From: a virus
Lineage: Duplodnaviria; Caudoviricetes
Strand: one strand, 5' to 3'
Virus record (IMG/VR): IMGVR_UViG_3300030397_000191
Coordinates: 1-32,378 of that record
Length of the DNA: 32,378 nucleotides
Below the pieces are notes generated by a model. The model was not told where the DNA came from, did not search any database, and was given only the letters and a program-made list of their open reading frames with translations. Shown in pieces: positions 1 through 22,698 of this stretch (its first letter is position 1; each line of letters opens with the position of its first letter). The translations under genes and the position numbers were made by a program.

Positions 1-244
1 ACGCTTCGACTGTCATGCACGAGGATGACACAGGAAGCAAGCGCATAGACGCCTTGTGACGCGCCTGCTCGTCGCTCAGGATCAAGTATTGAGCAGCGTT
101 TGTGTCGTATTGATCGACCTCCCAGCCTGCCTCAGTGACTGTGACGTCCCAACCAAGGCGTTCCTTGAACATACGACGGCGAGCCTGGTACATCCCATCT
201 AAAAGTGGGGTAGTCCATTCATTCGTGTGGATCGTGTAAGTCAT
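1..244 (-). CDS. luxI: Acyl-homoserine-lactone synthase, LuxI family (N-terminal 81 aa; gene continues beyond the left edge)
   Basis: Manual translation from ATG 244, which overlaps the denV stop (ATGA): MTYTIHTNEWTTPLLDGMYQARRRMFKERLGWDVTVTEAGWEVDQYDTNAAQYLILSDEQARHKASMRLLPVSSSCMTVEA. It carries the LuxI signature R22-F26-W32-E42-D44-D47-R68. Confidence 0.88.
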   Translation of the reverse strand, partial: MTYTIHTNEWTTPLLDGMYQARRRMFKERLGWDVTVTEAGWEVDQYDTNAAQYLILSDEQARHKASMRLLPVSSSCMTVEA

Positions 245-630
245 GGGTTCTTCATTCCTGCAAGGCGCTCCGCTATGCGTTCACGATTGAGACGCAAAGC
301 TCGGCGCGTGGGTTTGTAGTCGTTGAACAGATGCTCAGGTGCGGACATGAAGTCAGCTCGTGCATCCTGTGGGTTATGCTTCACATTGAAACCACGTTCG
401 AGACATTCACCATACAGGGCAAACTGCCGATTGAAGCAGAAGAGCAGTTTGTCGTAGAAGAATAGGACGTGACCCTTGCCGAGACGGTAGGTTCGGGGCA
501 GGTCGTCAACGCTGCCACCGCGCATGTGCCATTTTCGTGAGGCACCAAAGATGCGAGGGAGTTCGCGGTACTCGGCAAGCAGGTGCTTGTCGTGAAGCTC
601 GGTCACGGGGACAACATTGATGCGGGTCAT
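241..630 (-). CDS. denV: Pyrimidine-dimer DNA glycosylase (T4 endonuclease V family)
   Basis: MTRIN N-terminus (catalytic Thr2), HLLAEYRELPRIF (catalytic Glu) and LGKGHVLFFYDKL motifs. Start ATG 630 overlaps the upstream stop. Confidence 0.95.
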   Translation of the reverse strand: MTRINVVPVTELHDKHLLAEYRELPRIFGASRKWHMRGGSVDDLPRTYRLGKGHVLFFYDKLLFCFNRQFALYGECLERGFNVKHNPQDARADFMSAPEHLFNDYKPTRRALRLNRERIAERLAGMKNP

Positions 631-833
631 TTCCAAAGCCTTTCACCAAAAGGCAACAGCTCGGGAGACGTCGGCTGCTGGTTGATGAACACAGCGGTGG
701 GCAGCTTCATACCGTTGTAGTAGTCACGGACAGAGCGTGACTCCTTGGCGGAACGCACCGGGTCGATGTTGCGACGGCGCGCTTGCTTGCCGGGTTTGGG
801 TACTTCGTAGAAGTGGTAGTAGCGGTTCTTCAT
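627..833 (-). CDS. Hypothetical protein
   Basis: ATGA overlaps with neighbours on both sides. Confidence 0.7.
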   Translation of the reverse strand: MKNRYYHFYEVPKPGKQARRRNIDPVRSAKESRSVRDYYNGMKLPTAVFINQQPTSPELLPFGERLWK

Positions 834-1135
834 GGGATCAGCTCCTTGGTTGTGACGATGCCCCAGATGAGACGAGCGTCGTGGTATTTGTTCCTGACTA
901 TATCATCTGCTTCCGCAAATGTATAGGCCATTGCTCTGTCCGGATGCTTTGTGTTTGCAGAGCCGGCACACCAGCGAGCCTTGCCCCCGGGTGTGTAACG
1001 GTCATCGGGCCAGGTGAATTTTATACGATACAGACCCTTCGGGATATGGAGGTCACAGTAACCGGAGGCGGTAGCCGGTCGAGGACAGCGCCATGGTCGC
1101 ACTGCCCCCGTGTGTATGGTGGCACGACAGGTCAC
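830..1135 (-). CDS. Hypothetical protein with possible N-terminal Cys/His zinc-binding motif
   Basis: ATGA coupling on both sides; C3...C17...CDLH pattern. Confidence 0.7.
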   Translation of the reverse strand: MTCRATIHTGAVRPWRCPRPATASGYCDLHIPKGLYRIKFTWPDDRYTPGGKARWCAGSANTKHPDRAMAYTFAEADDIVRNKYHDARLIWGIVTTKELIP

Positions 1136-1755
1136 GACAGCATGCCCTCATCACAATCACCACACTTGATGTAGATGCCAGGTTTGCCGTAGGCGTTGAG
1201 GTCGCACATGGGGCAGGTGTACTTGGTACGCTTGCTGCCTTTCTTCTCGCGCTCGATGGGAGCGCCTCGCCATTCGATCACACCGAGGAACTTCACTTCG
1301 GCCAGATCGAACTGCCCATCCTCAATGATGTAGTGCGACACTCGACGACCGGTGCGCTTGCCTCCTGGCGCGCCTGTGCTGCTCGGCATCAGGCCTATTT
1401 CTTCCATCTTCGCTGCCCATTCCTTGTCGTGAGCAGTCTTCGTTTCGAGCTCACCGAAGTGATGCTGCCACAGGTGAACCATCTCATGCACAAGGGTCGA
1501 GAAAATCTCCCGATCTGTGCGGCCGGCAAAGGTGAAGGGGTTGAGGGCAATCTCGTCGACCACCTGGTCCTTCTTCTTTGTGCCCTTGAACGGGTGATGG
1601 CGATAGTAGCCATAGGCACGGCGCATTTCCGCGGACAGGGTGATGAGGCACTGGGGCAGCTCGTTGCCGAAGATCTCTTTGTTGAAGTGGTCATAGGCGT
1701 CTTGCAACACCGTGTAGGTTTCGCGGGTCGGGGTGCTTGCGGGTTTACGTGCCAT
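1132..1755 (-). CDS. SprT-like zinc metalloprotease with C-terminal zinc ribbon
   Basis: TLVHEMVH (HExxH), downstream HDKEW, CPMC...CGDC. GGAG RBS and TAATG coupling at 1755. Confidence 0.88.
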   Translation of the reverse strand: MARKPASTPTRETYTVLQDAYDHFNKEIFGNELPQCLITLSAEMRRAYGYYRHHPFKGTKKKDQVVDEIALNPFTFAGRTDREIFSTLVHEMVHLWQHHFGELETKTAHDKEWAAKMEEIGLMPSSTGAPGGKRTGRRVSHYIIEDGQFDLAEVKFLGVIEWRGAPIEREKKGSKRTKYTCPMCDLNAYGKPGIYIKCGDCDEGMLS

Positions 1756-1985
1756 TAGTTGTTCTCCCATGCTTCGCCAGGGGCGTAGGGGTTTTCATTG
1801 TAAGGGGCGGAGGAGCCTGCTGCGAGCCACAGGAACTCCTGCTCATCGCAATCCTCGGCAATCGTCACATTGCTCAGCGTTGCGCGAAGGGGCCATGAGG
1901 GCTGATAGGCAATGCGGACCTCAGGATCAGCGTCAGTGCTCTCCGCCAGTTCGGTCAGGTGGTCAATGAGTTCGGAGAGAGTCAT
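1755..1985 (-). CDS. Hypothetical phage protein
   Basis: Coupled ORF; MTLSELIDHL...EVRIAYQPSWPL. Confidence 0.75.
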   Translation of the reverse strand: MTLSELIDHLTELAESTDADPEVRIAYQPSWPLRATLSNVTIAEDCDEQEFLWLAAGSSAPYNENPYAPGEAWENN

Positions 1986-2215
1986 TGGGTCACCCCTTCG
2001 ATGAACTTGGACATGGCATACTGCGTGTGGGGTCCTTCGTGGACAGCCAGCACAGACAGGTTGAACACCACGTAGGCGGTGCGCTCGTGCGGGACTTGGC
2101 GCAGCATCGCGGAGGCGGTGTTTGCGTGTCCCTCAATCCATGAGTTGTAGATCGCTGCCGCTTGTGCGCGGAGCGTCTCCATCATTGTGGTGTTGGGTGT
2201 TTTGGGTTCTGACAT
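1982..2215 (-). CDS. Hypothetical protein
   Basis: AGGAG RBS; ATGA overlap with the next gene. Confidence 0.7.
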   Translation of the reverse strand: MSEPKTPNTTMMETLRAQAAAIYNSWIEGHANTASAMLRQVPHERTAYVVFNLSVLAVHEGPHTQYAMSKFIEGVTQ

Positions 2216-2763
2216 ATCTGTCTCCTATCGCGTTTGATAAGGAGACTATAAGCTAGTTCCGGAAGCTGCGCAAGACCAGAACTCTGCTGCCTGCACTTGT
2301 CGCAAAGGTGCGTTCCGAGGTTGATCGGTTTGCCGCAGTTCATGCAACCGCGCTCGGGCTTGGGAGGGAGGAGGCTGTCGAGGTTGCCGGCTTCACGGAG
2401 ACGGTATATTCTGTGGCGACTGACACCGAAGTGCTCAGCGCAGGCCTTGATGGAGTCGAACTCCTGCCTGCCGACTGTGACCTTGATACCCTTCGGGGTG
2501 TATGTGTCCTGCCCCTTCTCGAGCAGTCTCATAATCACCCCTTTGTGGACTCGGAAGTGTTCGGCTGCCGACTTGATAGATGGGAAGTCAAGACCATTGA
2601 TCCTGACGGGCTGGCGATAGTAGCCCTTGCCCTTTCCTACGTCATCAAGTCGACCTGCCAGCTTTGCCTTGTGCAAAGTGTTCGGCTCGAAGCCATGGGC
2701 ACGAGCAGCGGCAGCCATTGAAGGATACCACTGCCCGCGGAATTTAACACGCTTCTTCGGCAT
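2182..2763 (-). CDS. Putative DNA-binding protein with three NUMOD1-like repeats and a C4 zinc finger
   Basis: Repeats WYPSMAAAARAHG / DFPSIKSAAEHFRV / EFDSIKACAEHFGV; CMNC...CDKC. Start reassigned to ATG 2763 (MPKKRVK). Confidence 0.7.
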   Translation of the reverse strand: MPKKRVKFRGQWYPSMAAAARAHGFEPNTLHKAKLAGRLDDVGKGKGYYRQPVRINGLDFPSIKSAAEHFRVHKGVIMRLLEKGQDTYTPKGIKVTVGRQEFDSIKACAEHFGVSRHRIYRLREAGNLDSLLPPKPERGCMNCGKPINLGTHLCDKCRQQSSGLAQLPELAYSLLIKRDRRQICQNPKHPTPQ

Positions 2764-3466
2764 CGGTGTACTCGAGGATTTTGAGGGCCTCACTGTTGTC
2801 AACCTCACCGCCCGTCTTCATCGTCGCGTGGAACAGGACGTGGGGTTTCTGGCTGAAGGGGTCACGCAGGACGGTGATCCAAGGCCGTGCGTCAATGCGG
2901 TATCCCTCGCGGAAGTCACCAAACATGAGCTGACCGTCGGGCGCGTCGGGATCAACGTGCAGCGGGTAGCCGATCAATCGCGCAGGCACACCAGCAGCAA
3001 GACTGTCCTGGAACAGGAAGCGTCCGTCTCGATCCTTCAGGCGCTTCACGTCTCGCGCTGTGTTTTCGCTGCACAGGAACGCTGAGGAAGGCCTGTAGCG
3101 CGCGTCTAGGCGATACACGAGGTCTATGATAGCATCGCTGTCGAGCAGTGCTGTGTTGACGCGCTGAACGCGATTGCTGCAGAACACGCCTTGCGGTTCG
3201 TCGTGATTGCGACCTACCATATAGGCCTTGCCTTCGATCCGACGCAACCCCTCGTAGAGCTCCTGCCCGATGGCAGTGACAATGACTTCCGGAGGAGTCT
3301 CGTCAAGCCAACGCTGGTTGCGTTGAATGATCGTGCCGATCTCGTAGGGCACACTGTGTTCGACCATGTGGATGGTTGCCAGCTGCTTCATCGTGCAGGG
3401 GATGTAGGGGCCCACAATGGACAGCTTTGTTTCGGTGTTGCCACCGTCGATATAGAAGTTGGTCAT
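2744..3466 (-). CDS. Truncated, divergent HK97-fold major capsid protein paralog (240 aa)
   Basis: C-terminal half aligns by eye with the MCP at 13879: IIDLVY, KDRDGRFL, LIGYP, FGDFREGY, VLRDPFSQKPHVLF. ATG 3466 is coupled to the upstream small ORF. Confidence 0.85.
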   Translation of the reverse strand: MTNFYIDGGNTETKLSIVGPYIPCTMKQLATIHMVEHSVPYEIGTIIQRNQRWLDETPPEVIVTAIGQELYEGLRRIEGKAYMVGRNHDEPQGVFCSNRVQRVNTALLDSDAIIDLVYRLDARYRPSSAFLCSENTARDVKRLKDRDGRFLFQDSLAAGVPARLIGYPLHVDPDAPDGQLMFGDFREGYRIDARPWITVLRDPFSQKPHVLFHATMKTGGEVDNSEALKILEYTDAEEAC

Positions 3467-3612
3467 GGGGTCACCAGGAGGTAGGATGTGAGACCAGAAA
3501 GGCCAGCGCCGAGTAGATACCCGATCCGCTGACCTGTCCGATAAGGGCGGGTGGCCTGAACGACCTGGTAGATACACCAGGCCGCCCAGAGTGCTGCGAC
3601 GGTTTCCCGCAT
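3463..3612 (-). CDS. Small hydrophobic protein (49 aa, not in ORF track)
   Basis: MRETVAALWAAWCIYQVVQATRPYRTGQRIGYLLGAGLSGLTSYLLVTP. It fills the gap exactly, with TGATG and ATGA overlaps. Confidence 0.7.
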   Translation of the reverse strand: MRETVAALWAAWCIYQVVQATRPYRTGQRIGYLLGAGLSGLTSYLLVTP

Positions 3613-4505
3613 CAGTCGATCACGGTGTGGGAGCAGTACACCCAGCCGTGTCCGTCCATCTCATCGGCCATGACCTGCGTGGCAGTCTCGATGTACTGCA
3701 TACAGTTCTCGGCATCGAGCACGGCCATGATTGCACCGTTGACGGTGAACGGGGTGACGCCCGGACCATGGATCGCCGGGTTGTCCTCGTCGCCCATCGA
3801 GTAGTAGGCAGGGTCGAAGGTCACGTCTGCTTCTTCGCCGCCGAGCATAAGGAACACGCGGTACCAAAGGGAGCGGAAGTCCATGTCGCCGGCCTCGTCG
3901 ATCAGCGGCGGCAGTGCGTCGTCTTCGTCATCGTCGAGCAATGCGCCCAGATTGATTGCCACGATACCAGCCCCGCGGAGCATGTCGGCCAGTGTGATAC
4001 CGGGATCACCCTCCTCGATGGCCGTGTCCTGACCGCACAGGTCCTTGAGCCAGTCGGGCAGTTCGACTTCCGGCTGAGCACGTTGCCCTGCGAAGGCGGT
4101 CACCTCGTTGTTCTCGGGCATGCCGTGGCAATGACCCATCAGTGTGGCCAGGTCCATGATGAGTTTGGGATCACCGGCCAGCGACTTGGCAATGCGGTCG
4201 GAGACGCGGGAGTGTTCGCCGTGCTCGGGCTCGCCGGGAGTGCTGCGGTTGTGATACAGGCTGAACAGAAACTCAGACAGGCGGCGGATTTTCGGGTCGG
4301 TGATGTTTTCGGGATTGCGGTCCATGGGATCGAGCTCCTGGATGTTGGGTTGGGCGTTGGTGAAACGACCGGTCACTGTGGGAGTGTGTCCCATGAGATT
4401 GTGCCGGTCGATCCGGGTTTGGATCAGGCCTTTGCTGGTGAAGACCGGGAACTGGAAGTACCGCGTCGTGCCATATTCCAGCCAGCGGGCGTATTCCGGG
4501 GTCAC
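3612..4505 (-). CDS. Hypothetical acidic protein (about 297 aa)
   Basis: GTG 4505 overlaps the upstream stop (GTGA); long open frame in the operon direction. Confidence 0.75.
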   Translation of the reverse strand: MTPEYARWLEYGTTRYFQFPVFTSKGLIQTRIDRHNLMGHTPTVTGRFTNAQPNIQELDPMDRNPENITDPKIRRLSEFLFSLYHNRSTPGEPEHGEHSRVSDRIAKSLAGDPKLIMDLATLMGHCHGMPENNEVTAFAGQRAQPEVELPDWLKDLCGQDTAIEEGDPGITLADMLRGAGIVAINLGALLDDDEDDALPPLIDEAGDMDFRSLWYRVFLMLGGEEADVTFDPAYYSMGDEDNPAIHGPGVTPFTVNGAIMAVLDAENCMQYIETATQVMADEMDGHGWVYCSHTVID

Positions 4506-4684
4506 TTGTCCACGCCTTTGACGGTGACTTCCAGGAAGGCGGGCATGCCTTCGACGCAATCCTTGCGGACATAGAGCGTCGGCACCGGGGCGGTGTGCTT
4601 GTCGTCATCGGGCACCTGGTACTGGAGCATGTTCTTCGTCTCCTTCTTGAAGGGCAGCTTCACGGTGGTCGGTTTCTGTGCCAT
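4502..4684 (-). CDS. Hypothetical protein, first gene of the coupled operon
   Basis: AAAGGAG RBS; promoter directly upstream. Confidence 0.8.
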   Translation of the reverse strand: MAQKPTTVKLPFKKETKNMLQYQVPDDDKHTAPVPTLYVRKDCVEGMPAFLEVTVKGVDK

Positions 4685-8465: not shown

Positions 8466-9050
8466 ATGCCACGCAAAGGACGCAAGAAACCCCTGGTCAA
8501 TGATAAGTTGGCCCCAAAGCGAACTACCATCAAGGTCAACGGCAAGACCCTGAAGATCAAACAGAAGCAGGCCTACGACAAGGGCCGCTTTGATGCCGAA
8601 ATGCGCGAAGGCTACCTGGCACTGATCCGGGAGGGCTTCACGAACAAGGATGCTGCGGCTGCCTGCGGCTGTGGCACCAAGTACTTCCAGCGACGGCGCA
8701 AGGAAGACCCCGACTTCGAACAGGCTTACCAAGATGCGAGAGCTGACGGCGATGACGTGATCCGGGCGGAAATCAAACGGCGCGGCGTTGACGGCGTGAA
8801 ACGAGCGATCTACCACGATGGCAAAGTCGTCGGGCACAAGCAGGAGTACTCCGACAATCTGCTGATGTTCTTAGCCAAGAGCCGTATGCCCACTGAGTTC
8901 GGTGACAAGCAGCAGGTTGAGCACACCCACAAGTTCGAAGGCGCAGCGGAACAACTCGCTGACAAAATCGCAGGCATCCTCGGTGTGGCAGCCCCTGCAC
9001 TCCCACCCAGCAACCCCGACATGATCGACATTACCCCGGAGGAAACATGA
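8466..9050 (+). CDS. terS: Terminase small subunit
   Basis: Immediately upstream of TerL; HTH region, DPDFEQAY and YSDNLLMFLAK motifs. Confidence 0.85.
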   Translation: MPRKGRKKPLVNDKLAPKRTTIKVNGKTLKIKQKQAYDKGRFDAEMREGYLALIREGFTNKDAAAACGCGTKYFQRRRKEDPDFEQAYQDARADGDDVIRAEIKRRGVDGVKRAIYHDGKVVGHKQEYSDNLLMFLAKSRMPTEFGDKQQVEHTHKFEGAAEQLADKIAGILGVAAPALPPSNPDMIDITPEET

Positions 9051-10396
9051 GCCTTGCGAACTTCAGCCTACATGAACTGCGACAGCAAGTCGACCCCGAG
9101 GACCTGGTCAAGCTGTTTGCTTCCCTCACTGATGAAGAAGCTACGATGCTGCAGTACCAGTGGTCGTTTTGGGCCCGTCCTCAGCAGATACCTCCCACAC
9201 TCACGAAGACCGAGCACGATTGGCTCACCTGGCTCATCCTCGCTGGACGCGGCTTCGGCAAAACACGATCAGGAGCTGAGTGGGTCCGCGATCTGGTCGA
9301 GAACCATAACTACCGGCGGATTGCACTTGTCGCTGAGGACGCAGGTGACGCCCGTGACGTTATGGTGGAGGGAGAAAGCGGCATCATTGCCGTGTGTCCA
9401 CCGTGGAACCGACCGAACTATGAACCCTCAAAACGGAGGCTTACGTGGCCCAATGGCGCAAGAGCAACAATCTTTTCTGCAGATGATCCTGAAAGCCTTC
9501 GTGGTCCGCAGCATGACGCGGCTTGGCTTGACGAGCTATGCAAGTGGCGGTATCAGCAAGAGGCCTGGGACCAGCTGCAGTTTGGTCTCCGTCTTGGAAA
9601 GCGGCCGGTGCAGTGCATCACTACCACACCCAAACCCACCAAGCTGCTCAAGGAGATCGTCGCTCGCCAAAGCACACTCATCACCAAGGGCCACACCTAC
9701 GATAACCTTGACAATCTCGCATCCTCCTTCCGAGAAGCTATTGTCGCCAGATACGAGAACACTCGTCTCGGCCGTCAGGAACTCAGTGCTGAAATCCTCG
9801 ATGACAACCCGAACGCGCTCTTCCACCAGCCGCTGATCGACCAGCACCGCATCCCCAAGAAGGACCTGCCCGAAGACCTGCAGATGACTGTTGTGGCTGT
9901 GGACCCTCCCGCTACTGGCAACGCCACCAGTGATGAATGCGGCATCATCGTCTGCAGCCGTGATATCCCGAACACGAACCACGCCCACTTCTACGTCGAG
10001 CACGACGGCACGGTCCAGGGACGCAGTCCGGAACAGTGGGCACAGACGGCAATCAGCAACTACTACAAGTTCGAGGCGAACGCGATTGTAGCCGAGGTGA
10101 ACCAAGGCGGCGATATGGTCGAGTCCGTGATCCGCGGTGTTGATCCCACGGTGAAGGTCATCAAGGTCCGTGCATCGAAGGGCAAGTGGCTGCGCGCTGA
10201 ACCCATCGCCGGTCTCTACGAACAAGGCCGAGTGCATCACGTCGGCAGCTTCAGTGACCTAGAAGATCAGATGTGCGACTTTGACCCGTCCGGAACCGTA
10301 GAAGGTAAATCACCCGACAGGCTCGATGCACTGGTGTGGGGCTTGGCCGAATTAAGCAACCGCAAACAGTCCGAACCGGGTATTCGGCGCTTGTAA
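9047..10396 (+). CDS. terL: Terminase large subunit
   Basis: AGRGFGKT Walker A, WLDE Walker B, ITTTP, VAVDPP and SPDRLDALVW nuclease motifs. Confidence 0.97.
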   Translation: MSLANFSLHELRQQVDPEDLVKLFASLTDEEATMLQYQWSFWARPQQIPPTLTKTEHDWLTWLILAGRGFGKTRSGAEWVRDLVENHNYRRIALVAEDAGDARDVMVEGESGIIAVCPPWNRPNYEPSKRRLTWPNGARATIFSADDPESLRGPQHDAAWLDELCKWRYQQEAWDQLQFGLRLGKRPVQCITTTPKPTKLLKEIVARQSTLITKGHTYDNLDNLASSFREAIVARYENTRLGRQELSAEILDDNPNALFHQPLIDQHRIPKKDLPEDLQMTVVAVDPPATGNATSDECGIIVCSRDIPNTNHAHFYVEHDGTVQGRSPEQWAQTAISNYYKFEANAIVAEVNQGGDMVESVIRGVDPTVKVIKVRASKGKWLRAEPIAGLYEQGRVHHVGSFSDLEDQMCDFDPSGTVEGKSPDRLDALVWGLAELSNRKQSEPGIRRL

Positions 10397-10434
10397 CGTG
10401 CGTTATACGTGCGTAACGTAAGCCATAATCGCGG

Positions 10435-10464
10435 TTGACGTTCCCCCTCCTTTGGCACTATGAT
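10435..10464 (+). promoter_or_regulatory. Sigma70-type promoter upstream of portal
   Basis: TTGACG-18 nt-TATGAT. Confidence 0.6.
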
Positions 10465-10486
10465 GGTTGTCGAAGGAGATCTCCGT

Positions 10487-11782
10487 ATGGCAAAGATGAC
10501 ACAAGAGACGAAGGCGTCGAAGACAGGCAGGGGCATTCACCTGCAGACGCTTGGTCGTCCGACATGGACCCCTCGCGAGTATGACAAGCTCGCCAAAGAG
10601 TCCTACGAAATGAATGCAGTCTCTTACCGATGCGTCCGGCTTATTGCTGAAGCCGCCGCCTCGATGCCCTTCCTCGTCATGGAAGGCGACAAAGAGATGG
10701 AAACCCACCCCTTCCTCGACCTGATGAAGCGGCCCAACCCCTTCGAGTCCCGACACGAGCTGCTGACCCGGCTCTACTCCTTCCTTCTTCTGTCGGGGAA
10801 CAGCTACATGGAACCCGTCATGCTCGACGGCAACCCACGTGAGCTGTTCATCCTTCGCCCCGACCGTATGAAGGTTGCCGTTGGAGCTCGTGGCTATCCT
10901 GAGAAGTATATCTATACCGTCGGCCAGACCGAGATCATCTACAGTGTGGGCAATGAGAGTGGTCAGCTGCCCATCCTGCACGTCAAGGAGTTTCACCCAA
11001 CGAATGACCACTATGGCCTCAGCCCTGTGGAAGCTGCAGCCTATTCGATTGACGTCCACAACCAGTCAAACGCTTTCAGCAAGTCGCTCCTCGAGAACGG
11101 TGCGAGACCCTCGGGTGCCCTGGTTTACAGCGGTGGTGAGTCAGGGACGGAGACGCTGTCCGACGAGCAGTTCACTCGGCTGAAAGCAGAGCTGGAGGAA
11201 AAGTACATGGGGCCAAAGAATGCTGGCCGGCCCCTGCTGCTTGAAGGCGGGCTAGACTGGAAGGAGATGTCGCTCGCACCGAAGGACATGGAGCAGACCG
11301 ACGCGAAACAGCAGTCGGCACGGGACATTGCTCTTGCCTTCGGTGTTCCCCCGCAGCTCCTCGGTATCCCTGGTGATAACACCTACACCAACTACTCCCA
11401 GGCCGTCCGTGCGTTGTATCGCCAGACGGTCATTCCTTTGGTCAATCACGTATGCGAGGACCTGACCACGTTCTTCGGCCCCTCCTATGGCGATGACTTC
11501 CTGGTCAAGACCGACCTCGACACACTCGAAGCTCTGGCCGATGAGCGCAAGGAACTGTGGGATCGTGTGGAGAAGTCGACCGTGCTGACGCTTGACGAGA
11601 AGCGCGAGGCCATCGGCTATGACAAGGCGAAGGACCGCAAGGTCGGTGAGGCGATCTGGGCACCCATGAACGAAATGCCCCGCAACGCTGACGAACCGAA
11701 GGAAGACCTCAACGACGGCAAGGAGCCAAATAGCGAAGACCCCTTCGATGATGGCAAGGAGCCTGAGGAGGATGACTCCTAA
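10487..11782 (+). CDS. Portal protein, HK97 family
   Basis: HPFLDLMKRPNP, YGLSP, NGARPSG, NAGRPLLLEGGLDW, IALAFGVPP motifs; AAGGAG RBS. Confidence 0.96.
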   Translation: MAKMTQETKASKTGRGIHLQTLGRPTWTPREYDKLAKESYEMNAVSYRCVRLIAEAAASMPFLVMEGDKEMETHPFLDLMKRPNPFESRHELLTRLYSFLLLSGNSYMEPVMLDGNPRELFILRPDRMKVAVGARGYPEKYIYTVGQTEIIYSVGNESGQLPILHVKEFHPTNDHYGLSPVEAAAYSIDVHNQSNAFSKSLLENGARPSGALVYSGGESGTETLSDEQFTRLKAELEEKYMGPKNAGRPLLLEGGLDWKEMSLAPKDMEQTDAKQQSARDIALAFGVPPQLLGIPGDNTYTNYSQAVRALYRQTVIPLVNHVCEDLTTFFGPSYGDDFLVKTDLDTLEALADERKELWDRVEKSTVLTLDEKREAIGYDKAKDRKVGEAIWAPMNEMPRNADEPKEDLNDGKEPNSEDPFDDGKEPEEDDS

Positions 11783-12483
11783 TGCGCGAAGCGGGTATTA
11801 TATCGAGCCAGTTGCTCATTCGTTATGAAAAGCGTATGACGACTAGCGTTTCAGCGTCATTGAACGCTCTGGCTCGCGATATCGACGCTCGCTGGGCCTT
11901 TGATCCTATCCCGATCATCGCTGAAGAGCTGCTCAAATGGCAGTCGACGCTTGCAGACCTGATCTTCCGCTTCAGTGAGACGGTCGGTCGAGAAGGCGCA
12001 ACCCACATCATCCGCGCCCGTGACCAGAAGAACGAGGCAGTCGATCTGGTCATGATGGGTATCCGGCATAGACTCCGGAACTACTCCCGTGCAAGGGCTG
12101 AACTCATTGAGCGGTACCTGCGTGACCGTGTCGCTCGTGAACTGCGCGAAGGCGTATCAATCGCCGACGCCCGACTGACTATCCGAAACATCTTGAAGAA
12201 CCCAGCGTATGCAGAACGCATCGCACGGACAGAGAGCCACATCGCTCTTGAGCGTGGCGCGTTCGAGGCTGCGCGGTCACTCGGGGTTCGTATCACCAAA
12301 GAATGGATATCCCGAGAGGATGCTCATGTCCGACCCGAACACGCAGCTGCTCATGGTCAGGTTCGCGAGATAGAGGCACCGTTTGACGTAGGGGGCGAGC
12401 ACCTTCTATACCCCGGTGACCCTTCAGGTACCGCGAAGAACACTGTCAACTGCCGTTGCACCGTCAACTACAGATTGGAGTAA
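11782..12483 (+). CDS. Head morphogenesis protein (Mu gpF / SPP1 gp7-like)
   Basis: AERIARTE, KEW...D..VRPEH, YPGDP...NCRC. Confidence 0.9.
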   Translation: MREAGIISSQLLIRYEKRMTTSVSASLNALARDIDARWAFDPIPIIAEELLKWQSTLADLIFRFSETVGREGATHIIRARDQKNEAVDLVMMGIRHRLRNYSRARAELIERYLRDRVARELREGVSIADARLTIRNILKNPAYAERIARTESHIALERGAFEAARSLGVRITKEWISREDAHVRPEHAAAHGQVREIEAPFDVGGEHLLYPGDPSGTAKNTVNCRCTVNYRLE

Positions 12484-12486
12484 TGG

Positions 12487-12741
12487 ATGACTAACGACAC
12501 AAGTGACCCCCACCGCGTTGCCGCTCGAGTCACTGAGCTTGAGCAATGGAGGCACAAGGTAGATACCGAACGTGCTGTCCATGATGAGCGGGACCGGTAC
12601 GCCAAAGAACGCTTCGATAATGTCGAGAAACGCCTTGACAAGATCGACTCCCATATCAGTAGAGTGGTATGGCTCGTATTAACCGCAATCATAGGGGCCC
12701 TGATGGCCTTCCTAATCTCTGGGGGTTTCAGCCTTGGGTAA
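12487..12741 (+). CDS. Small coiled-coil plus transmembrane protein (resembles GTA g3.5)
   Basis: EKRLDKID followed by a C-terminal hydrophobic helix; located between portal and protease. Confidence 0.6.
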   Translation: MTNDTSDPHRVAARVTELEQWRHKVDTERAVHDERDRYAKERFDNVEKRLDKIDSHISRVVWLVLTAIIGALMAFLISGGFSLG

Positions 12742-13141
12742 ATTCAACCTTACATCACTCGTTCTGTCCAACATCAGCGTAACCCTGATCACCGCTATGG
12801 TGGCTTTGCCATTCCTACCTGTCATCGAAGCGAAGCTGTTCCCCGTTGTCAGCAAGATGTCCTTCGAGCAGGTAGTCGAAGGTGATGGCTTTCTGGACGT
12901 CTATGTCCACTTCGAGAAGTATCGCGCCTGCGAGTTTATGGGGCTCACATTCATCCAGAGTAATGCTCGGGTGGCCGTTGAGTTTCCACCAGCTGATGAC
13001 GCACTCCCAACGTCCCGTCCAGTTGGTGAATGGGTTGACGGGCCATGGCGCATACATACGCCTTCCTTAGACGGCGTGAGTGTCGTTGTTGAACATCGTT
13101 GCCATGGTATGTGGAACATTTTTACCAACCTATACCCCTAG
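12734..13141 (+). CDS. Hypothetical protein with N-terminal membrane anchor
   Basis: Hydrophobic N-terminus; overlaps the previous stop. Confidence 0.6.
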   Translation: MGKFNLTSLVLSNISVTLITAMVALPFLPVIEAKLFPVVSKMSFEQVVEGDGFLDVYVHFEKYRACEFMGLTFIQSNARVAVEFPPADDALPTSRPVGEWVDGPWRIHTPSLDGVSVVVEHRCHGMWNIFTNLYP

Positions 13142-13166
13142 GCCTACGGAGGAAGAGACGGCCCTA

Positions 13167-13195
13167 TTGCAAATATGGCGGTGCCAATTTATGAT
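13167..13195 (+). promoter_or_regulatory. Sigma70-type promoter upstream of protease and capsid genes
   Basis: TTGCAA-17 nt-TATGAT. Confidence 0.65.
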
Positions 13196-13219
13196 CCGCC
13201 CATGAAAGGAAACTGAACC

Positions 13220-13882
13220 ATGACCACGAACACTGAGCAAAAATTCGCACCCCTTGATCTGAAAGAGGTGTCGGAGGAAGGCGAGTTCGAGGGCTACGCT
13301 TCGAAGTTCGGTGACCGCGATCAAGGCGGTGACACGGTCGTGAAGGGTGCCTTTCTGAACTCGCTGGGACGACGGCAGGCCAACGGCATCAAGATGCTCT
13401 GGCAGCACGATCCGTCCTATCCCATCGGCGTCTGGGACGAGGTGAAGGAGGACAAGACGGGACTCTTCGTCAAGGGTCGCATCCTCACCACAGTCCAGAA
13501 GGGACGCGAAACACTTGAACTGATGAGGGCAGGCGTCATTGACGGCATGTCCATTGGTTATCGCACAATCAAGGCCCTGCGCGACGATGCCACTGGCACT
13601 CGTATGTTGAAGGAACTCGATCTGTGGGAAATCTCCCTTGTCACCTTCCCCATGCTGACCTCGGCCACGGTCACGTCAGTCAAGGGCGACTGGGACAAGC
13701 GGACGGTAGAGCGTGTACTGCGTGACGCAGGCATGCCGAACGCGATGGCTGTAAAGCTTATCGCAGGTGGCTGGGATGCCGCCAACACTTCCGGAGCACA
13801 GGGCGATCCTGGCGACGGGCTTAGCGATCTGTCGGAACAACTCCGGCGGATGAATGAAACCCTGCAAAGGAGACTCACATGA
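13220..13882 (+). CDS. Prohead protease, HK97 family
   Basis: FEGYAS, MLWQHD, GMSIGY, LWEISLVTFP. Confidence 0.96.
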   Translation: MTTNTEQKFAPLDLKEVSEEGEFEGYASKFGDRDQGGDTVVKGAFLNSLGRRQANGIKMLWQHDPSYPIGVWDEVKEDKTGLFVKGRILTTVQKGRETLELMRAGVIDGMSIGYRTIKALRDDATGTRMLKELDLWEISLVTFPMLTSATVTSVKGDWDKRTVERVLRDAGMPNAMAVKLIAGGWDAANTSGAQGDPGDGLSDLSEQLRRMNETLQRRLT

Positions 13883-15198
13883 AAGACTTCATGTACCCCG
13901 AGGGCCCGCTCGAAACCAAGGACGCGGGCAATGGCGGTGATGGTGGCAATGCGCCGGATACCGTCGAAATCAAACGGCAGCTGGATGCCTTCGACACCAC
14001 GCTGACGGCCTTCATGAAGAAGACCGACGAGAACCTGGAACTGGCTAAGAAGGGCAAGGACGTCGATCCCCTCGACACCGAGTCCGGCAAAAAGATGGCT
14101 GCTGACCTTGATGGCCTGAAGAAGTCCATCGAGAACCTTCGCCTGAAGGAAGCCCGCCCGATCCTGACCGCGCCTGATGGGACCAAGACCCAGATGACCG
14201 AGGAACAGATCGAGCACAAGAAGCAGTTCGAGCGCTTCTTCCGCAAAGGCGTCGAGTCCGAGGAACTCCAGGCCATCGAGCAGAAGACGTTGTCCGTGGG
14301 TTCCGATCCCGACGGCGGCTATACGGTTCCTGTCCAGATGGAAACGGCCATCGACCGTGTTGTCACGGAAATCTCCAACGTGCGCCAGATCGCTCGTGTG
14401 GTTCAGGTCTCGACTGCGTCTTACAAGCGCATGACGGGTCAGGGCGGTGCGACCTCCGGCTGGGTTGGTGAACAGGAGTCGCGTCCTCAGACCAACACCC
14501 CGCAACTCGCGGTGCAGGAATACCCTGTCATGGAGCTCTACGCGATGCCGGCGGCCACGCAGTCCATCTTGGATGATGCGGCCATCAACATCGACAACTG
14601 GCTCGCCGACGAGGTTGCCATCGAGTTCGCCTACCAGGAAGGTGCTGCCTTCGTGAACGGCAACGGCTCTGCGAAACCGAAGGGCTTCATGCAGGGTGAC
14701 AAGGTGGCGAATGACTCTTGGGCCTGGGGCAAGCATGGCTACATCGCAACGGGCCAGTCGGGTGATTGGGCGGACAACTCGTCCGATCCGGGTGCAGAGG
14801 CGACCAATATCATCGACCTGGTCTATGCCTTGAAGCCGACCTTCCGTTCCAACGCTCGCTTCACCATGAACCGCAAGACGGTGTCTTCGGTCATGAAGCT
14901 GCGTGACGCGGATGGCCGTCCTCTGTGGCACACGAACCTGCGCGAAGGTCAGCCCGACACGCTGATGGGCTATCCGATCACCGAACTGGAAGACATGCCG
15001 GATATCGCAGCTGACAGCTACTCGATCTCCTTCGGCGACTTCCGCCGCGGTTACATCATCGTGGACCGCATCGGTACCCGGGTTCTGCGCGATCCGTTCT
15101 CGTCCAAGCCTTACATCCTGTTCTACACCACCAAGCGTGTGGGCGGCGGCATGGGCCACTGGGACGCGATCAAGCACCTGAAGTTCGGCGCTTCCTGA
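13879..15198 (+). CDS. Major capsid protein, HK97 fold
   Basis: DGGYTVP, AFVNGNG..KPKG, FGDF, RDPFSSKPYILFYTTKRVGG. Confidence 0.97.
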   Translation: MKDFMYPEGPLETKDAGNGGDGGNAPDTVEIKRQLDAFDTTLTAFMKKTDENLELAKKGKDVDPLDTESGKKMAADLDGLKKSIENLRLKEARPILTAPDGTKTQMTEEQIEHKKQFERFFRKGVESEELQAIEQKTLSVGSDPDGGYTVPVQMETAIDRVVTEISNVRQIARVVQVSTASYKRMTGQGGATSGWVGEQESRPQTNTPQLAVQEYPVMELYAMPAATQSILDDAAINIDNWLADEVAIEFAYQEGAAFVNGNGSAKPKGFMQGDKVANDSWAWGKHGYIATGQSGDWADNSSDPGAEATNIIDLVYALKPTFRSNARFTMNRKTVSSVMKLRDADGRPLWHTNLREGQPDTLMGYPITELEDMPDIAADSYSISFGDFRRGYIIVDRIGTRVLRDPFSSKPYILFYTTKRVGGGMGHWDAIKHLKFGAS

Positions 15199-15207
15199 TC
15201 CACCACC

Positions 15208-15233
15208 GGGTGAGGCGAATGAGCGCCTTACCC
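15208..15233 (+). other. Hairpin after the capsid gene (possible attenuator or mRNA stabiliser)
   Basis: GGGTGAGGCG-AATGAG-CGCCTTACCC, 10-bp stem, no U-tract. Confidence 0.5.
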
Positions 15234-15264
15234 ATCCACTAACCGTTCAAACAAGGAGATACCC

Positions 15265-15690
15265 ATGAAACGGGACCTTATGAACTCGATCCACCCGGTG
15301 GTTGCAATCGCTCCCGTGGTGGTGACTGATGGCACGGCACAGGTTTCCGCTGCCATTGACGTGCGGGACTACCGCTCCGTCACCTTCGTTATCCTGCTCG
15401 GCACTCTTGCCGACTCCGATGCCACCTGGGCCGTCACGGTCAAGGAAGGTTCGGACTCGACGCAGGGCAACCACACTGCTGTCGCTGACGCCGACCTGGT
15501 CGGTACCGAGGCGCTGGCAGGCTTCACCTTCGAGGACGACGGGGAGACCCGCAAGATCGGCTATGTCGGATCAGCGGACTACGTGTCCATCGAGATTGAT
15601 GACGTGACCGCCAACTCGGGCAACGCGCCTATGGCAGTCCTGGCCATTCTCGAACCGCTGGAAGGTCCGGCCTCGAACCCGCCTGCGTAA
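15265..15690 (+). CDS. Putative capsid-associated or decoration protein
   Basis: Strong RBS; directly after the MCP gene; beta-strand-like acidic sequence. Confidence 0.6.
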   Translation: MKRDLMNSIHPVVAIAPVVVTDGTAQVSAAIDVRDYRSVTFVILLGTLADSDATWAVTVKEGSDSTQGNHTAVADADLVGTEALAGFTFEDDGETRKIGYVGSADYVSIEIDDVTANSGNAPMAVLAILEPLEGPASNPPA

Positions 15691-15768
15691 TCCTCGTTCG
15701 CTGGTGGTGCGGGGGTCATCATTATCCTCCTCCCTGGATGATGGCCCCCAACCTCAAAGGAGATTGTC

Positions 15769-16428
15769 ATGTACTCGAATAAAAGAACAACCGACCCGGC
15801 ATCTGAACCCGTCACGAAAGCGGAGCTTGACGCTCACCTTCGTGGCGATGGCGTTTTGGAAGCCAATGAGGCGGACCTGCTTGACTCTCTCATCCTTGCG
15901 GCGCGTGAATACGTGGAGGAGTTCACACGTCGCGCCCTTATCACACAATCATGGACCCTTGTGATGGACGCCTGGCCTCAAGCCAAAGGCGACAACCTGG
16001 GTTGGTGGGACGGTGTCCGTGAAGGCTCGATCTCCTCGGGCACTCAGGGCTTTGTTGAGCTGCCTATCGGTCAGCTCCAGTCCGTTACGTCCGTGACCAC
16101 CTACGACAATGACAACTCGTCCACGGTGTTCGCCTCGTCGAACTACTTCCTGGACACCAACGCCACTCCTGGCCAATTGATCCTCAACACAGGCACTGTG
16201 TGGCCTGTCTTCACTCGTACTCGCAACGGGATCGAGATTGAGTATGTGGCCGGGTATGGTGACAACGCAACCGACGTTCCGGGCGCATTGCGTCAGGCGG
16301 TGAAACAACTTGCTGCTCACTGGTACGAGAACCGTGAGCTTGTCAAGACGCAATCGGATCAGAACCAGGCGATGGCCCCTGTCCATGTCCAGTCGATCCT
16401 GAACCGGTGGAAGGTGCAGCGGCTATGA
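15769..16428 (+). CDS. Head-tail adaptor (gp6 / GTA g6-like)
   Basis: EPVT..E..AHLR, AAREYVE, YVAGYG, AAHWYENRE. Confidence 0.92.
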   Translation: MYSNKRTTDPASEPVTKAELDAHLRGDGVLEANEADLLDSLILAAREYVEEFTRRALITQSWTLVMDAWPQAKGDNLGWWDGVREGSISSGTQGFVELPIGQLQSVTSVTTYDNDNSSTVFASSNYFLDTNATPGQLILNTGTVWPVFTRTRNGIEIEYVAGYGDNATDVPGALRQAVKQLAAHWYENRELVKTQSDQNQAMAPVHVQSILNRWKVQRL

Positions 16429-16787
16429 AGACACGAAAGTTCGATATCGGCAAGATGCGCCATCGTATCCGGGTCTATAACGTAGATCAGGTTGACGATG
16501 GCTCTGGTGGTTTTGATAGGGGCGATCCCGACCCGAGTGATCTGCTCACGACTGTCTGGTGTCATATCGAGCCAGTGACTGCGCGTGAACGTCAGTGGGG
16601 TGAGCAATATACCGAGCTGACGACACATCGCTGCTGGCTCCGCTACAACGACCAGCTGGCTGAAGGACAGACCTGGCAACGTGACGTTGGCGGCACGACG
16701 ATCAACTACTACGTCGAGCAGCTCTATGACCCCGACAACCTGCAAGAGTTCCATCTTGCCATGCTGCGTGAAGGAGGACCGATGTAA
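16425..16787 (+). CDS. Head closure (stopper) protein
   Basis: IGKMRHRI, DDGSGG, TVWCHIEP; ATGA overlap. Confidence 0.85.
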   Translation: MKTRKFDIGKMRHRIRVYNVDQVDDGSGGFDRGDPDPSDLLTTVWCHIEPVTARERQWGEQYTELTTHRCWLRYNDQLAEGQTWQRDVGGTTINYYVEQLYDPDNLQEFHLAMLREGGPM

Positions 16788-17227
16788 TGCCTGCCCTCAC
16801 CGTTCGCGTCAGAAACATGGGTCGCCTCCAAGCGAAGGTCAAGAAGTTGCCCCTCGACATTCAGGCTGGTGTGGTCATCGGTCTTCGGTCCCTGACGTCT
16901 CCCATCGAGGAAGATATCAAACGCAGCATCCGGACTGGTGCTCGCACTGGCCGTATCGTCAAGCGGTACCATCCCGCCCGTGTTCATCAGGCGTCTGCAC
17001 CCGGTGAGGTTCCCGCCAATGACCGCGGTATGCTCGCGAACTCGATTGAGGTGGACGTTGATCCCACTCAGTTCAACCTGACCATGAGTGCATCGGCACC
17101 CTACGCTCAGGAACTCGAATACGGAACCAAGCACATGCTGCCTCGTCCGTTCCTTCGTCCCGCACTGACGCGGTGGCGTGAGCGGATCATCAAGGCAATA
17201 CAAGACGCGATAAAGGGGAAGCTCTGA
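16787..17227 (+). CDS. HK97 gp10-like tail completion protein
   Basis: HQASAPGE.P...G.LANSI, YAQELEYGTKHMLPRPFLRPA. Confidence 0.88.
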   Translation: MPALTVRVRNMGRLQAKVKKLPLDIQAGVVIGLRSLTSPIEEDIKRSIRTGARTGRIVKRYHPARVHQASAPGEVPANDRGMLANSIEVDVDPTQFNLTMSASAPYAQELEYGTKHMLPRPFLRPALTRWRERIIKAIQDAIKGKL

Positions 17228-17634
17228 TGGCTGAAGACGCAGCAGACCAACTCATTGCCGCATTCGTCGCAGCCTTCAAAGCTGACGCGACTATCGGCTC
17301 AACCTGTGGGGATCGGGTCTTCAACTACGTGCCCCGTCGAACACAGGAACCCTACATCATTGTCCACATCACGGACAGCGATGAGTGGGACACAGACACA
17401 GATGACGGGGAAGAACACTCCGTCTACATTCACGTATGGGACGACAAAGAAGGTTCCAAACGTGTCAACCAGATTATGCGGCGGGTCAAGGAGCTGCTGC
17501 ATGATGAAATGGCCAGCTTCTCGCTGACTGACCACAACCTGGTGAATTGCCGGCGCGTGTCAAAGCAGGTAGTGAGGGATGGCCAACTTTACCACGGCAT
17601 CGGGCTATTCCGTGCCATAACAGAGGAGACTTAA
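17227..17634 (+). CDS. Tail terminator (DUF3168-like)
   Basis: RVFNYVP, YHGIGLFRAITE; gene position. Confidence 0.85.
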   Translation: MAEDAADQLIAAFVAAFKADATIGSTCGDRVFNYVPRRTQEPYIIVHITDSDEWDTDTDDGEEHSVYIHVWDDKEGSKRVNQIMRRVKELLHDEMASFSLTDHNLVNCRRVSKQVVRDGQLYHGIGLFRAITEET

Positions 17635-17636
17635 CC

Positions 17637-18050
17637 ATGGCTGCACAACCCGGCAAGGACGTGCTTATCAAGGTGGACTCGGACGGCGCTGGTACATTCG
17701 TCACCATTGGCGGAATGCGCTCGAAGTCCATCTCACTCAATTCGGAGACGGTCGACGTATCGGACTCCGACTCAACCAACCGCTGGCGCGAGCTGCTGGC
17801 TGGTGCGGGGCTGCGCTCTGCAACTGTCACAGGTTCCGGTGTGTTCAAGGACTCGGCAGGGGAGGAAGACGTTCGCGGCTACTTCTTCGCTGGCACCCAT
17901 GAAGACTACCAGTTCATCGTGCCCGACTTCGGTACCATCGAAGGTGCGTTCCAAGTGACCGCCATCGACTATGCCGGCGAACACAACGGCGAAGCGACGT
18001 ACTCCATGACTTTCGAGTCCGCTGGGGAACTGACCTGGACCGCTGCATAA
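17637..18050 (+). CDS. Major tail tube protein (GTA g9 / TP901-1 family)
   Basis: MAAQPGKDVLIK, WRELLAGAG, PDFGTIEG.F, YAGEHNGEATY; GAGGAG RBS. Confidence 0.95.
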   Translation: MAAQPGKDVLIKVDSDGAGTFVTIGGMRSKSISLNSETVDVSDSDSTNRWRELLAGAGLRSATVTGSGVFKDSAGEEDVRGYFFAGTHEDYQFIVPDFGTIEGAFQVTAIDYAGEHNGEATYSMTFESAGELTWTAA

Positions 18051-18087
18051 CCCATCAACCACAAGGTCATTTCAGGAGGATAGACCA

Positions 18088-18447
18088 ATGAACGCCAACA
18101 AGCAACGCGGTGAAGTAACAATCGAAGGTCCCGAGGGTAAGGAGTACAAGCTCTGTCTCACTCTCGGGGCCATCGCACAAATCGAAGACCAGATCGAGGG
18201 CATGGACTCTTTGTCCGAAGTCGACAAGGTCTTCCAGAAGGCTCGCATGAAAGACGTGATGACCATCTTTGTGGCTCTACTCAACGGTGGGGGCCATATC
18301 GAGATCACGTCCAAGGATATGATGACCTGGAACGTCCCGCTCAAGGACCTCATGCAGAAAATCCGCGATGCCTTCCAAGCTGCCGGCTTCGATGACGGGG
18401 AAGGTGATGAAAACACAGAGGATGGTGAGGGCAAGGGAAAAAACTAA
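18088..18447 (+). CDS. Tail assembly chaperone (GTA g10-like)
   Basis: NKQRGEV...LCLTLGA; position between tube and tape measure genes. Confidence 0.88.
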   Translation: MNANKQRGEVTIEGPEGKEYKLCLTLGAIAQIEDQIEGMDSLSEVDKVFQKARMKDVMTIFVALLNGGGHIEITSKDMMTWNVPLKDLMQKIRDAFQAAGFDDGEGDENTEDGEGKGKN

Positions 18448-18665
18448 AGCGGGGCAGAACGCCCTGGGAAGGATGGATGAAGATTGCCTTCGGGCACATG
18501 CACCTACCATCCGAGGTCTTTTGGAACTACAGCTTGCGAGAATGGCAGGCCTGCTTCAAGGGATACACCGAAAAAACCCAGGGCAAACGCGAAGCCCCGC
18601 TATCCCGATCCTCACTTAACTCGCTAATGGAAAGGTATCCTGATGGCCCTCGGAAGACTGATTGA
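18435..18665 (+). CDS. Tail chaperone C-terminal extension reached by -1 frameshift
   Basis: G GGA AAA AAC slippery site before the stop; the -1 frame is open (KLKRGRTPWEGWMKIAFG...FWNYSLREW). Confidence 0.8.
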   Translation, partial: GKKLKRGRTPWEGWMKIAFGHMHLPSEVFWNYSLREWQACFKGYTEKTQGKREAPLSRSSLNSLMERYPDGPRKTD

Positions 18666-20742: not shown

Positions 20743-21371
20743 TGGCTTTTCACGAAACACGCTTCCCGACCAACATCGCCTTCGGTGCCCGTGGCGGCCC
20801 GAAACGTAAGACCATCATTGCTGCCTCCGGGTCCGGCTTCGAACACCGGAACTCACAGTGGGCAGACTCGAAGCGGGAGTACAACGCGGGCTACGGTGTC
20901 AAGAGTCTGGACGATATCCATGATGTGGTCGAGTTCTTCGAGGAACGCCGGGGCATGTTGCACGGCTTCCGCTGGAAAGACAAGTTCGACTGGAAGTCCT
21001 GCAAGCCGAAAGAGACGCTGGCGTTCAATGACCAGACCATCGGTACGGGTGACGGCAGCACCACGACGTTCCAGTTGACCAAGACCTACGGCTCGTCCTA
21101 TGCGCCCTACACCCGGGATATTAAGAAACCCGTCAGTGGCACTGTGTTGATCGGCGTCAATGGAGCTGACACGGGAGGCTCGGGTTGGTCGGTTGATTTG
21201 ACCACAGGGGTCATCACGTTCAGCGTTGCACCCACATCCGGTCACGCGATCACAGCGGGTTATGAGTTCGACGTTCCTGTCCGCTTCGATACCGACTACC
21301 TTCAAATTGACCTGACTGCATTCCAAGCGGGACAGGTTCCCGATATCCCCATTGTGGAGATCAGAGTATGA
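20742..21371 (+). CDS. Distal tail protein (DUF2460, GTA g12-like)
   Basis: MAFHETRFP, FFEERRG.LHGFRWKD, FDVPVRFDTD. Confidence 0.95.
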   Translation: MAFHETRFPTNIAFGARGGPKRKTIIAASGSGFEHRNSQWADSKREYNAGYGVKSLDDIHDVVEFFEERRGMLHGFRWKDKFDWKSCKPKETLAFNDQTIGTGDGSTTTFQLTKTYGSSYAPYTRDIKKPVSGTVLIGVNGADTGGSGWSVDLTTGVITFSVAPTSGHAITAGYEFDVPVRFDTDYLQIDLTAFQAGQVPDIPIVEIRV

Positions 21372-22276: not shown

Positions 22277-22697
22277 GGATATCATTGCCGAGGCGAGGAC
22301 CTGGATCGGTACGCCCTACCACCACCAGGCTTCGCTTAAAGGCGTCGGGTGTGATTGCATTGGATTGGTTCGCGGTATCTTCCGCGAGCTTTATGGCTTC
22401 AACCCTGCCGAGAATATCAACTATTCCGCTGACTGGGGTGACAGCAATGGGAATGAGGACATAATCGCCGCTGGGTTCAAATATATGGAGCCAGTAGCAC
22501 TCGAGGATATGCAACCGGGTGACATGGTCGCAGTGCGCTGGGCAAAGGGACGTGTGGCCAAGCATGTGATGATCCTGACCGAGAACGGGAAGGCTATTCA
22601 TTCCTACAACAACTCGCCCACAACCGAGATACATTTGAACGACTGGTGGAGGCGTCGCATCGTCTACGTCTTCCGGTTCCCGCAGGAGGTGAAGTAA
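22263..22697 (+). CDS. NlpC/P60 cell-wall peptidase (GTA g14-like)
   Basis: ARTWIGTPYHHQ, GCDCIGLVRG, AKH..I; probable TTG start after GGAGG. Confidence 0.93.
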   Translation: MVKTEDIIAEARTWIGTPYHHQASLKGVGCDCIGLVRGIFRELYGFNPAENINYSADWGDSNGNEDIIAAGFKYMEPVALEDMQPGDMVAVRWAKGRVAKHVMILTENGKAIHSYNNSPTTEIHLNDWWRRRIVYVFRFPQEVK

Positions 22698-22698
22698 C

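Follow-up and report, generated by a model that had tools for sequence, protein, structure and literature searches.

A short LuxI-family gene, with no LuxR partner found, in the genome of a likely lytic phage

The phage genome studied here carries a gene, luxI, whose 176-aa product, P0165, is a LuxI-family member by every sequence and fold test applied and a predicted acyl-homoserine lactone (AHL) synthase, and no gene for a LuxR-type receptor was found in the completed genome. The gene starts near the left end of the window, which is the whole 32,378-nucleotide stretch of DNA that was analysed (IMG/VR record IMGVR_UViG_3300030397_000191), and runs off it. Phage LuxI proteins as such are already known; the new part is the receptor-less form.

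The luxI gene belongs to the phage genome

1..244, minus strand: 5′ 81 codons of a LuxI-family synthase gene (PF00765); the remaining 95 are past the end of the contig
241..630, minus strand: denV (endonuclease V; PF03013 / phrog_1183), whose stop overlaps the luxI start (ATGA)
627..1135, minus strand: two small hypothetical genes of the overlapping chain
1132..1770, minus strand: SprT-like gene, its place conserved in relatives without luxI
1755..4684, minus strand: upstream chain of small hypothetical genes, an HTH/NUMOD1-like gene and a capsid-like paralogue
8466..29775, plus strand: terminases, HK97 head, RcGTA-type tail (TIGR02217, TIGR02218, TIGR02219, megatron), DUF2793 fibre and endolysin
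32143..32371, plus strand: second overlap with contig G001 (99.1% identity), which closes a circle of about 45 kb

As the first-pass annotation had described, a minus-strand frame with LuxI motifs starts with the ATG at 244, overlaps the denV stop through ATGA and runs for 81 codons off the left end. Because the window is an entire IMG/VR record (71% complete), the end of the frame at position 1 is the end of the contig and not a stop. The truncated 81-codon part matches PF00765 with 48.7 bits (E 8e-13; cut-off 24).

The sequence left of the window was recovered from G001 (L002, L170; 13,139 bases), the one matching contig from a viral scan, which was used to complete luxI. This contig is identical to window positions 1-222 at 221 of 222 bases (99.55%), and by arithmetic the two together form a circle of about 45.1 kb. 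This size resembles that of the complete relatives OP947159 (46,186) and MW202777 (45,280), which match at 66-81% across many blocks. In G001 the luxI frame stays open until its stop (L002:3-509), with no stop or frameshift soon after codon 81, and yields the full 176-aa P0165, which is also present in the protein collection. The 3′ end of luxI tightly overlaps the end of a convergent primase gene, beyond which lie kinase, pyrophosphohydrolase, thymidylate synthase, exonuclease, dCMP deaminase and DNA polymerase genes; the next genes are thus of phage type, and luxR was not found there.

The annotation had further taken luxI for a genuine gene of the phage genome and not flanking host DNA. This holds, because G001 overlaps both window ends and closes a phage circle; phage-type genes lie beyond the overlap, and synteny with the complete relatives is kept on both sides of luxI. 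There is no chimeric join to host DNA, and in two public assemblies a single contig reaches 4,222 bases past the left end of the window. As both assemblies belong to a single study, and the source sample may be one of them, they confirm how the sequence was assembled but say nothing of a broader distribution. Residue 49, outside the core set, reads N in the window, whereas G001 and both high-depth public assemblies have D.

The minus-strand chain from 4684 to the luxI start, claimed to be unbroken and overlapping, proved so at all 11 junctions, ten of which are ATGA, GTGA, TGATG or TAATG overlaps; the remaining one, at 2744, is an overlap of about 20 nt. The ATGA overlap of denV and luxI suggests translational coupling, and luxI is the final gene of the probable operon that starts at 4684. 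A promoter and terminator scan of positions 1-8200 gave 5 promoter sites (3.8 expected) and 7 terminator sites (7.1 expected), and nothing above chance is claimed. A repeat search near luxI gave no outstanding lux-box-like palindrome or insertion scar.

Protein family and predicted fold

Full-length P0165 matches PF00765 with 80.3 bits (cut-off 24) over profile positions 9-159 of 183. Residues R22, F26, W32, E42, D44, D47, R68, E99 and R102 are invariant in all 13 aligned LuxI proteins (18-58% identity); they make up the conserved N-terminal set of the family (R, F, W, E, D, D, R, E, R), as checked on alignments of LasI, EsaI and TofI. P0165 falls below the cut-offs of the FeeM N-acyl amino acid synthase model PF21926 (23 bits; cut-off 27) and of the TraI-type models NF052393 and NF010408 (67.5 and 67.7; cut-offs 250 and 292).

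All four matches of P0165 in a PDB sequence search are AHL synthases, as are the top 11 Foldseek rows and the top 11 VIA-align rows for the AlphaFold model of a 168-aa part (pLDDT 83.4). The model aligns 163-165 of its 168 residues to RpaI, MesI, TofI, BjaI and LasI (Z 16.3-17.1, rmsd 2.9-3.1), and its best structural match reaches Z 17.1 (rmsd 2.9 over 165 residues), while FeeM and other GNATs score Z 12.9. Structures of CoA-type and ACP-type synthases tie within 1 Z unit against the model, and the basic residues R143, K146 and K147 are compatible with either the acyl-ACP or the acyl-CoA subtype.

P0165 ends right after the last strand, with 176 aa against 202-227 aa in the 30 closest Rhodobacterales LuxI proteins, which places it inside the range of 157-257 aa quoted for AHL synthases (PMC13136126). 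The missing C-terminal tail could alter or abolish activity. Gly135 of P0165 aligns with EsaI Thr140, at the position governing C3 substitution, which hints at an unsubstituted acyl chain without the 3-oxo group. A threonine that governs C3 substitution is described in PMC9654057.

An accessory gene without a phage receptor

In this phage luxI is an insert between denV and the primase gene. None of seven close relatives (L003, L004 and L207-L211; primase 53-57% identical; L209 and L210 apparently near-identical) has luxI there, and in these seven denV or sprT faces the primase gene directly. Likewise, PF00765 had no match in 15 whole records of primase relatives, while it matched all three cultured phages added as positives, and a denV-based scan of 28 distant loci found none with luxI. 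Because the gene is absent at the site in all seven close relatives, any benefit that it brings is conditional.

The reported absence of luxR from the window extends to the completed genome. PF03472 (LuxR) matched none of five records, including G000 and G001, which make up the completed genome, and PF00196 had no match in G000, G001, G002 or phage R26L. A LuxR profile was also built from the luxI loci gathered in this analysis (163 loci with a luxI match), and its best E value was 0.36 over the window, G001, G002, OP947159, MW202777, L009 and L010. As a control, this profile was applied to 84 loci with a 2.5 kb flank on both sides, the N4-like locus included, and detected LuxR within 2.5 kb of luxI at 71 of them. 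Since the other 13 control loci also have no luxR nearby, solitary luxI genes are not special to phages.

Furthermore, the integrase and resolvase families PF00589 and PF00239 matched none of five records, and a PHROG scan of 76 hand-picked ORFs showed no integration gene. The scan left many small genes without a match and gave one weak Cro-like HTH, situated beyond the primase gene, at a place where a regulator is annotated in both named luxI-less relatives (OP947159 and MW202777). Relative MD02 is predicted to be strictly lytic (PMC10370329). A lytic lifestyle is likely for this phage too, judging from its gene content.

Short LuxI proteins in other phages

Nine proteins of 169-189 aa are 48-91% identical to this LuxI. 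The homologues with DNA context, in an N4-like phage and a prophage-type lysis cassette, are 52-59% identical to it and are also without luxR, and the short luxI is thus seen in three settings: a siphophage-like genome, the N4-like G002, and the lysis cassette of L009/L089 and L010. The G002 phage genome is complete at 74,047 bases; it encodes a virion RNA polymerase of the N4 type, its capsid has its nearest matches in N4-like roseophages (61-64%), and it gave no luxR or integrase match. Its LuxI gene is as follows.

L172:5112-5621: LuxI P0008, 169 aa, of the N4-like phage G002

Cultured N4-like phages gave no tblastn match to the LuxI query. In L009/L089, a short contig, luxI follows a peptidase M15 endolysin gene and two small spanin-like genes, and in L010 it follows the spanin-like genes alone; the lysis-cassette luxI contig is binned to a Rhodobacteraceae genome. 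No further phage came out of viral scans with P0019 and alignment A4.

The phage-associated copies are under purifying selection. Among the six pairs of four such copies, mostly near saturation, dN/dS is 0.14-0.23 in five, with 0.23 for the unsaturated pair, and the sixth is saturated. The best LuxI score in 401 Rhodobacterales genomes is 110.6 bits, against 173.8 bits for the prophage-type copy, and identity to Rhodobacterales LuxI proteins is 34-45% among the matches listed.

A tree of 52 LuxI rows (18 short and 34 cellular proteins, with those of Rhodobacterales) separates the short from the cellular forms with SH-aLRT 92 in a quick version and 64/77 in a careful one. A 13-row group that contains P0165 has SH-aLRT 95 in the quick tree and is not resolved at 80 in the careful tree. 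This group is backed by sequence similarity and only weakly by the tree, and a single origin of all 18 short proteins is not claimed, given the careful-tree support of 64/77 and the long branches. A larger tree of 246 rows was set aside.

Known AHL systems of phages and prophages

Phage-borne AHL synthases had been put down at first as rare or uncharacterised; the latter does not stand, as prophage LuxI proteins have been shown to make AHLs and others are annotated. According to a preprint by Bunsick et al. (bioRxiv 10.64898/2026.07.02.736140), prophage LuxI proteins make AHLs, promote lysogeny and control the lysis-lysogeny decision; the AHLs also act across rival prophages, and one of them activates the quorum sensing of the host. 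There, an xre-luxR-luxI module is reported in 53 of 93 roseobacter prophages, any molecule that activates prophage LuxR drives lysogeny, and prophage LuxR proteins respond little to most non-cognate AHLs; orphan luxI genes were left out of the survey (bioRxiv 10.64898/2026.07.02.736140). Like the phage studied here, the prophages with such switches (Phaeobacter inhibens T5 and others) encode LuxI and live in what is likely the same host group; their luxI is exchanged as a module. However, they are temperate, and their switches include a cognate luxR, xre and a divergent hth, whereas luxI here follows denV and faces a convergent primase gene, with no luxR and no integrase match. Assignment to the prophage xre-luxR-luxI switches was rejected, as neither the luxR operon nor xre/hth was found.

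In a fold search of viral models, the "N-acyl-L-homoserine lactone synthetase" of RDJL Phi 2 ranked first, and gp55 of this phage (KT266805) is an annotated AHL synthase. R26L gene 2 (PP882867) scores 58 bits and RcCWillis gp81 scores 41 bits against PF00765. The latter (OP009268; L176:4920-5429) is annotated as hypothetical and is a LuxI-family protein, 40% identical to RDJL Phi 2 gp55. Like P0165, these three are short (163-184 aa) PF00765 proteins with the core residues, receptor-less and accessory, but they are only 18-33% identical to it and belong to other phage groups and other sites. PF03472 had no match in the RDJL Phi 2, R26L or RcCWillis genomes, and a tblastn search with the cultured-phage LuxI proteins found nothing in their sister phages, RDJL Phi 1 and R5C. 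The annotation lists an integrase for RDJL Phi 2 and, for RcCWillis, an immunity repressor four genes upstream, so that the lytic status of these two is not clean. R26L is described as without lysogeny markers in PMC11806900. Its hypothetical AHL synthase is discussed in PMC11981692, where metabolomics of infection found no intracellular AHLs and export was suggested; R26L gene 2 was equated with gp44 of that paper from the single PF00765 match in the genome.

Cellular LuxI proteins (those of Rhodobacterales, LasI, TofI, EsaI, RpaI and BjaI) share the Pfam family, core residues and predicted fold with P0165, which differs in being about 30 aa shorter and in having no adjacent luxR; 25 of the 30 closest cellular proteins have luxR within 1.5 kb. 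Viral raiI has been reported together with bjaR1 (PMC11309003, PMC11295528). Phage LuxR-type receptors without synthases (PMC6456758; CRP-810 LuxR, PMC11288001) are likewise half of an AHL circuit for which the host supplies the rest. Such receptor-only phages listen, while the present phage would only speak, as their mirror image. Searches of the accessible literature turned up neither an experiment on a phage LuxI that lacks a receptor nor an account of the short group, though such genes may be listed in supplements.

Host

The structural region at 8466..29775 served to infer phage type and host. Its tail genes match RcGTA-type models above the cut-off, the DUF2793 fibre is closest to those of RDJL Phi 2, RDJL Phi 1, R26L and R5C (53-60%), and the endolysin is closest to that of an Octadecabacter phage (54%). 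A LuxI match occurs in 205 of 401 Rhodobacterales genomes. Tail fibre and endolysin make a roseobacter the likely host (for background on such hosts, see PMC9437464 and PMC5026251). MD02, the closest named relative, was assigned to a Desulfofustis host by three CRISPR spacer alignments, with weaker Rhodobacteraceae matches (PMC10370329). This assignment is a point against a roseobacter host. The CtrA site motif, TTAA-N7-TTAA, occurs twice in the window against 1.97 expected, and is at chance level also in G001 and the relatives. As CtrA boxes are not enriched, membership in the CtrA-regulated alphaproteobacterial phages (PMC9437464) was rejected.

Other features of the window and related sequences

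The non-structural chain contains a second, shortened major-capsid-like gene (2744-3463, minus strand; PF05065, 115.6 bits), which shares 33% identity with the C-terminal portion of the capsid protein of this phage and may act as a decoy or modulate assembly. A capsid gene is annotated at a similar position in MW202777. On the plus strand, a stand-alone NAD+-ligase N-terminal domain (8097-8411; PF22745, 39.8 bits) lies directly before the small terminase, and a 45-nt direct repeat (7706-7750 and 7992-8036, 78% identical) lies ahead of two small plus-strand genes, its first copy adjoining an 11-of-12 sigma-70-like site (7756-7784). Public assemblies X1 and X3 contain, at lower depth, a variant that agrees with 3074-5093 in short pieces only, and a related phage with other accessory genes therefore co-occurs. 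Runs X4 and X6, which have only short, low-depth pieces of relatives, were left out for habitat.

In G001, a 350-aa gene (L170:8108-9157, minus strand) in the cluster of thymidylate kinase, thymidylate synthase and dCMP deaminase genes had no match in Pfam, PHROG or NCBIfam and is perhaps a base-modification gene. In IMG/VR record L008, a luxR-luxI pair (L008:9138-10813) adjoins chromosomal-looking genes and is probably host DNA flanking a provirus.

Proposed function and alternatives

A compact LuxI without a phage luxR would, during a probably lytic infection of a likely roseobacter host, make an AHL that host LuxR reads, and quorum behaviour would be switched on; we give this proposal about an even chance of being right. 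luxI would be expressed together with the denV operon, and the synthase would use host SAM and an acyl donor to form an AHL whose acyl chain, to judge from Gly135, may be unsubstituted. Host LuxR receptors would then read the phage-made AHL, the infected cell and its neighbours would be pushed into a quorum state, and the phage may gain through AHL-controlled roseobacter states, namely the CtrA phosphorelay, a replication burst, flagella, pili and capsule. In D. shibae, AHL starts the CtrA cascade and first stimulates replication (PMC6473078), and in P. inhibens an AHL made by a phage switches on the quorum sensing of the host (bioRxiv 10.64898/2026.07.02.736140). Host manipulation fits better than signalling between infections because neither a phage receptor nor lysogeny genes were found. 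Against it, one lytic cycle may be too short for a diffusible signal to pay back, and the R26L infection metabolomics, in which no intracellular AHLs were found, also speak against it (PMC11981692). The broader statement that the AHL is read by a LuxR not the phage's own, which joins reading by the host and by resident prophages through the same chemistry, is quite probable.

Resident xre-luxR-luxI prophages, if the host has any, could themselves be the target, held in lysogeny so that they neither induce nor compete during infection. LuxR activation drives lysogeny, AHLs cross-activate and 53 of 93 prophages have the module (bioRxiv 10.64898/2026.07.02.736140), a synthase that comes without a receptor offers no handle for counter-manipulation, and the patchy distribution of luxI fits. 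However, prophage LuxR is described as little responsive to most non-cognate AHLs (bioRxiv 10.64898/2026.07.02.736140). This target is unlikely, though not markedly so.

A drain on SAM or acyl donors, or the making of another acyl amide, for instance to blunt SAM-dependent defences, appears rather improbable as the role of the enzyme. Phage SAM lyases blunt such defences, luxI is grouped with small accessory genes next to denV and SprT, and the C-terminal trimming, the weak FeeM match (23 bits; cut-off 27) and the lack of a receptor are consistent with such a role. Yet the fold and the nine core residues are closer to AHL synthases than to FeeM or other GNATs. LuxI enzymes are slow and need an acyl donor, and P0165 would thus be a poor SAM sink.

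The AHL might also report infection density from phage to phage, through an unrecognised phage receptor or a relay by host regulators, and tune lysis timing. Prophage AHL and arbitrium systems operate in this way (bioRxiv 10.64898/2026.07.02.736140), and between 4.7 and 8 kb many genes could be assigned to no family. This is improbable given that no LuxR-like gene, integrase or resolvase was found and CtrA boxes are at chance level; moreover, the neighbours of luxI differ among carrier phages, and therefore no partner gene travels along.

That luxI is a neutral passenger from the host or another phage, without fitness effect, is still harder to credit. Its absence from close relatives would agree with this, and its GC3 of 0.60 is the lowest of 10 genes compared, yet near the 0.62 of denV. 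The dN/dS of about 0.2, the coupled start, the tight convergent overlap with the primase end and the same short group in three unrelated phage settings all argue otherwise, as does the lack of any score above 110.6 bits in 401 Rhodobacterales genomes, against 173.8 bits for the prophage-type copy. Finally, an assembly artefact or flanking host DNA is barely conceivable and largely refuted: luxI does lie at a contig end, and L008 does show luxR-luxI beside chromosomal-looking genes, but G001, holding only phage-type replication genes, overlaps both ends at 99.1-99.55%, single contigs in two public assemblies extend 4,222 bases leftward, and synteny with complete relatives is kept on both sides.

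Implications

In the AHL systems of phages that have been tested, a phage receptor decides between lysis and lysogeny. A synthase that has no receptor, in a phage that has no integrase, would act in one direction only, as a chemical lever on the host population or on competing prophages. Cultured pairs with and without such a gene exist (R26L and R5C, RDJL Phi 2 and RDJL Phi 1), the quorum sensing of their hosts is well studied, and RcCWillis gp81 adds a further unrecognised LuxI case. Tentatively, and at somewhat less than even chances, unrelated roseobacter phages (GTA-tailed siphoviruses, an N4-like phage and prophage lysis cassettes) may trade a trimmed, receptor-less LuxI as a stand-alone effector, and would then be lytic broadcasters that steer their hosts and keep rival prophages in lysogeny, yet hear no counter-signal themselves.
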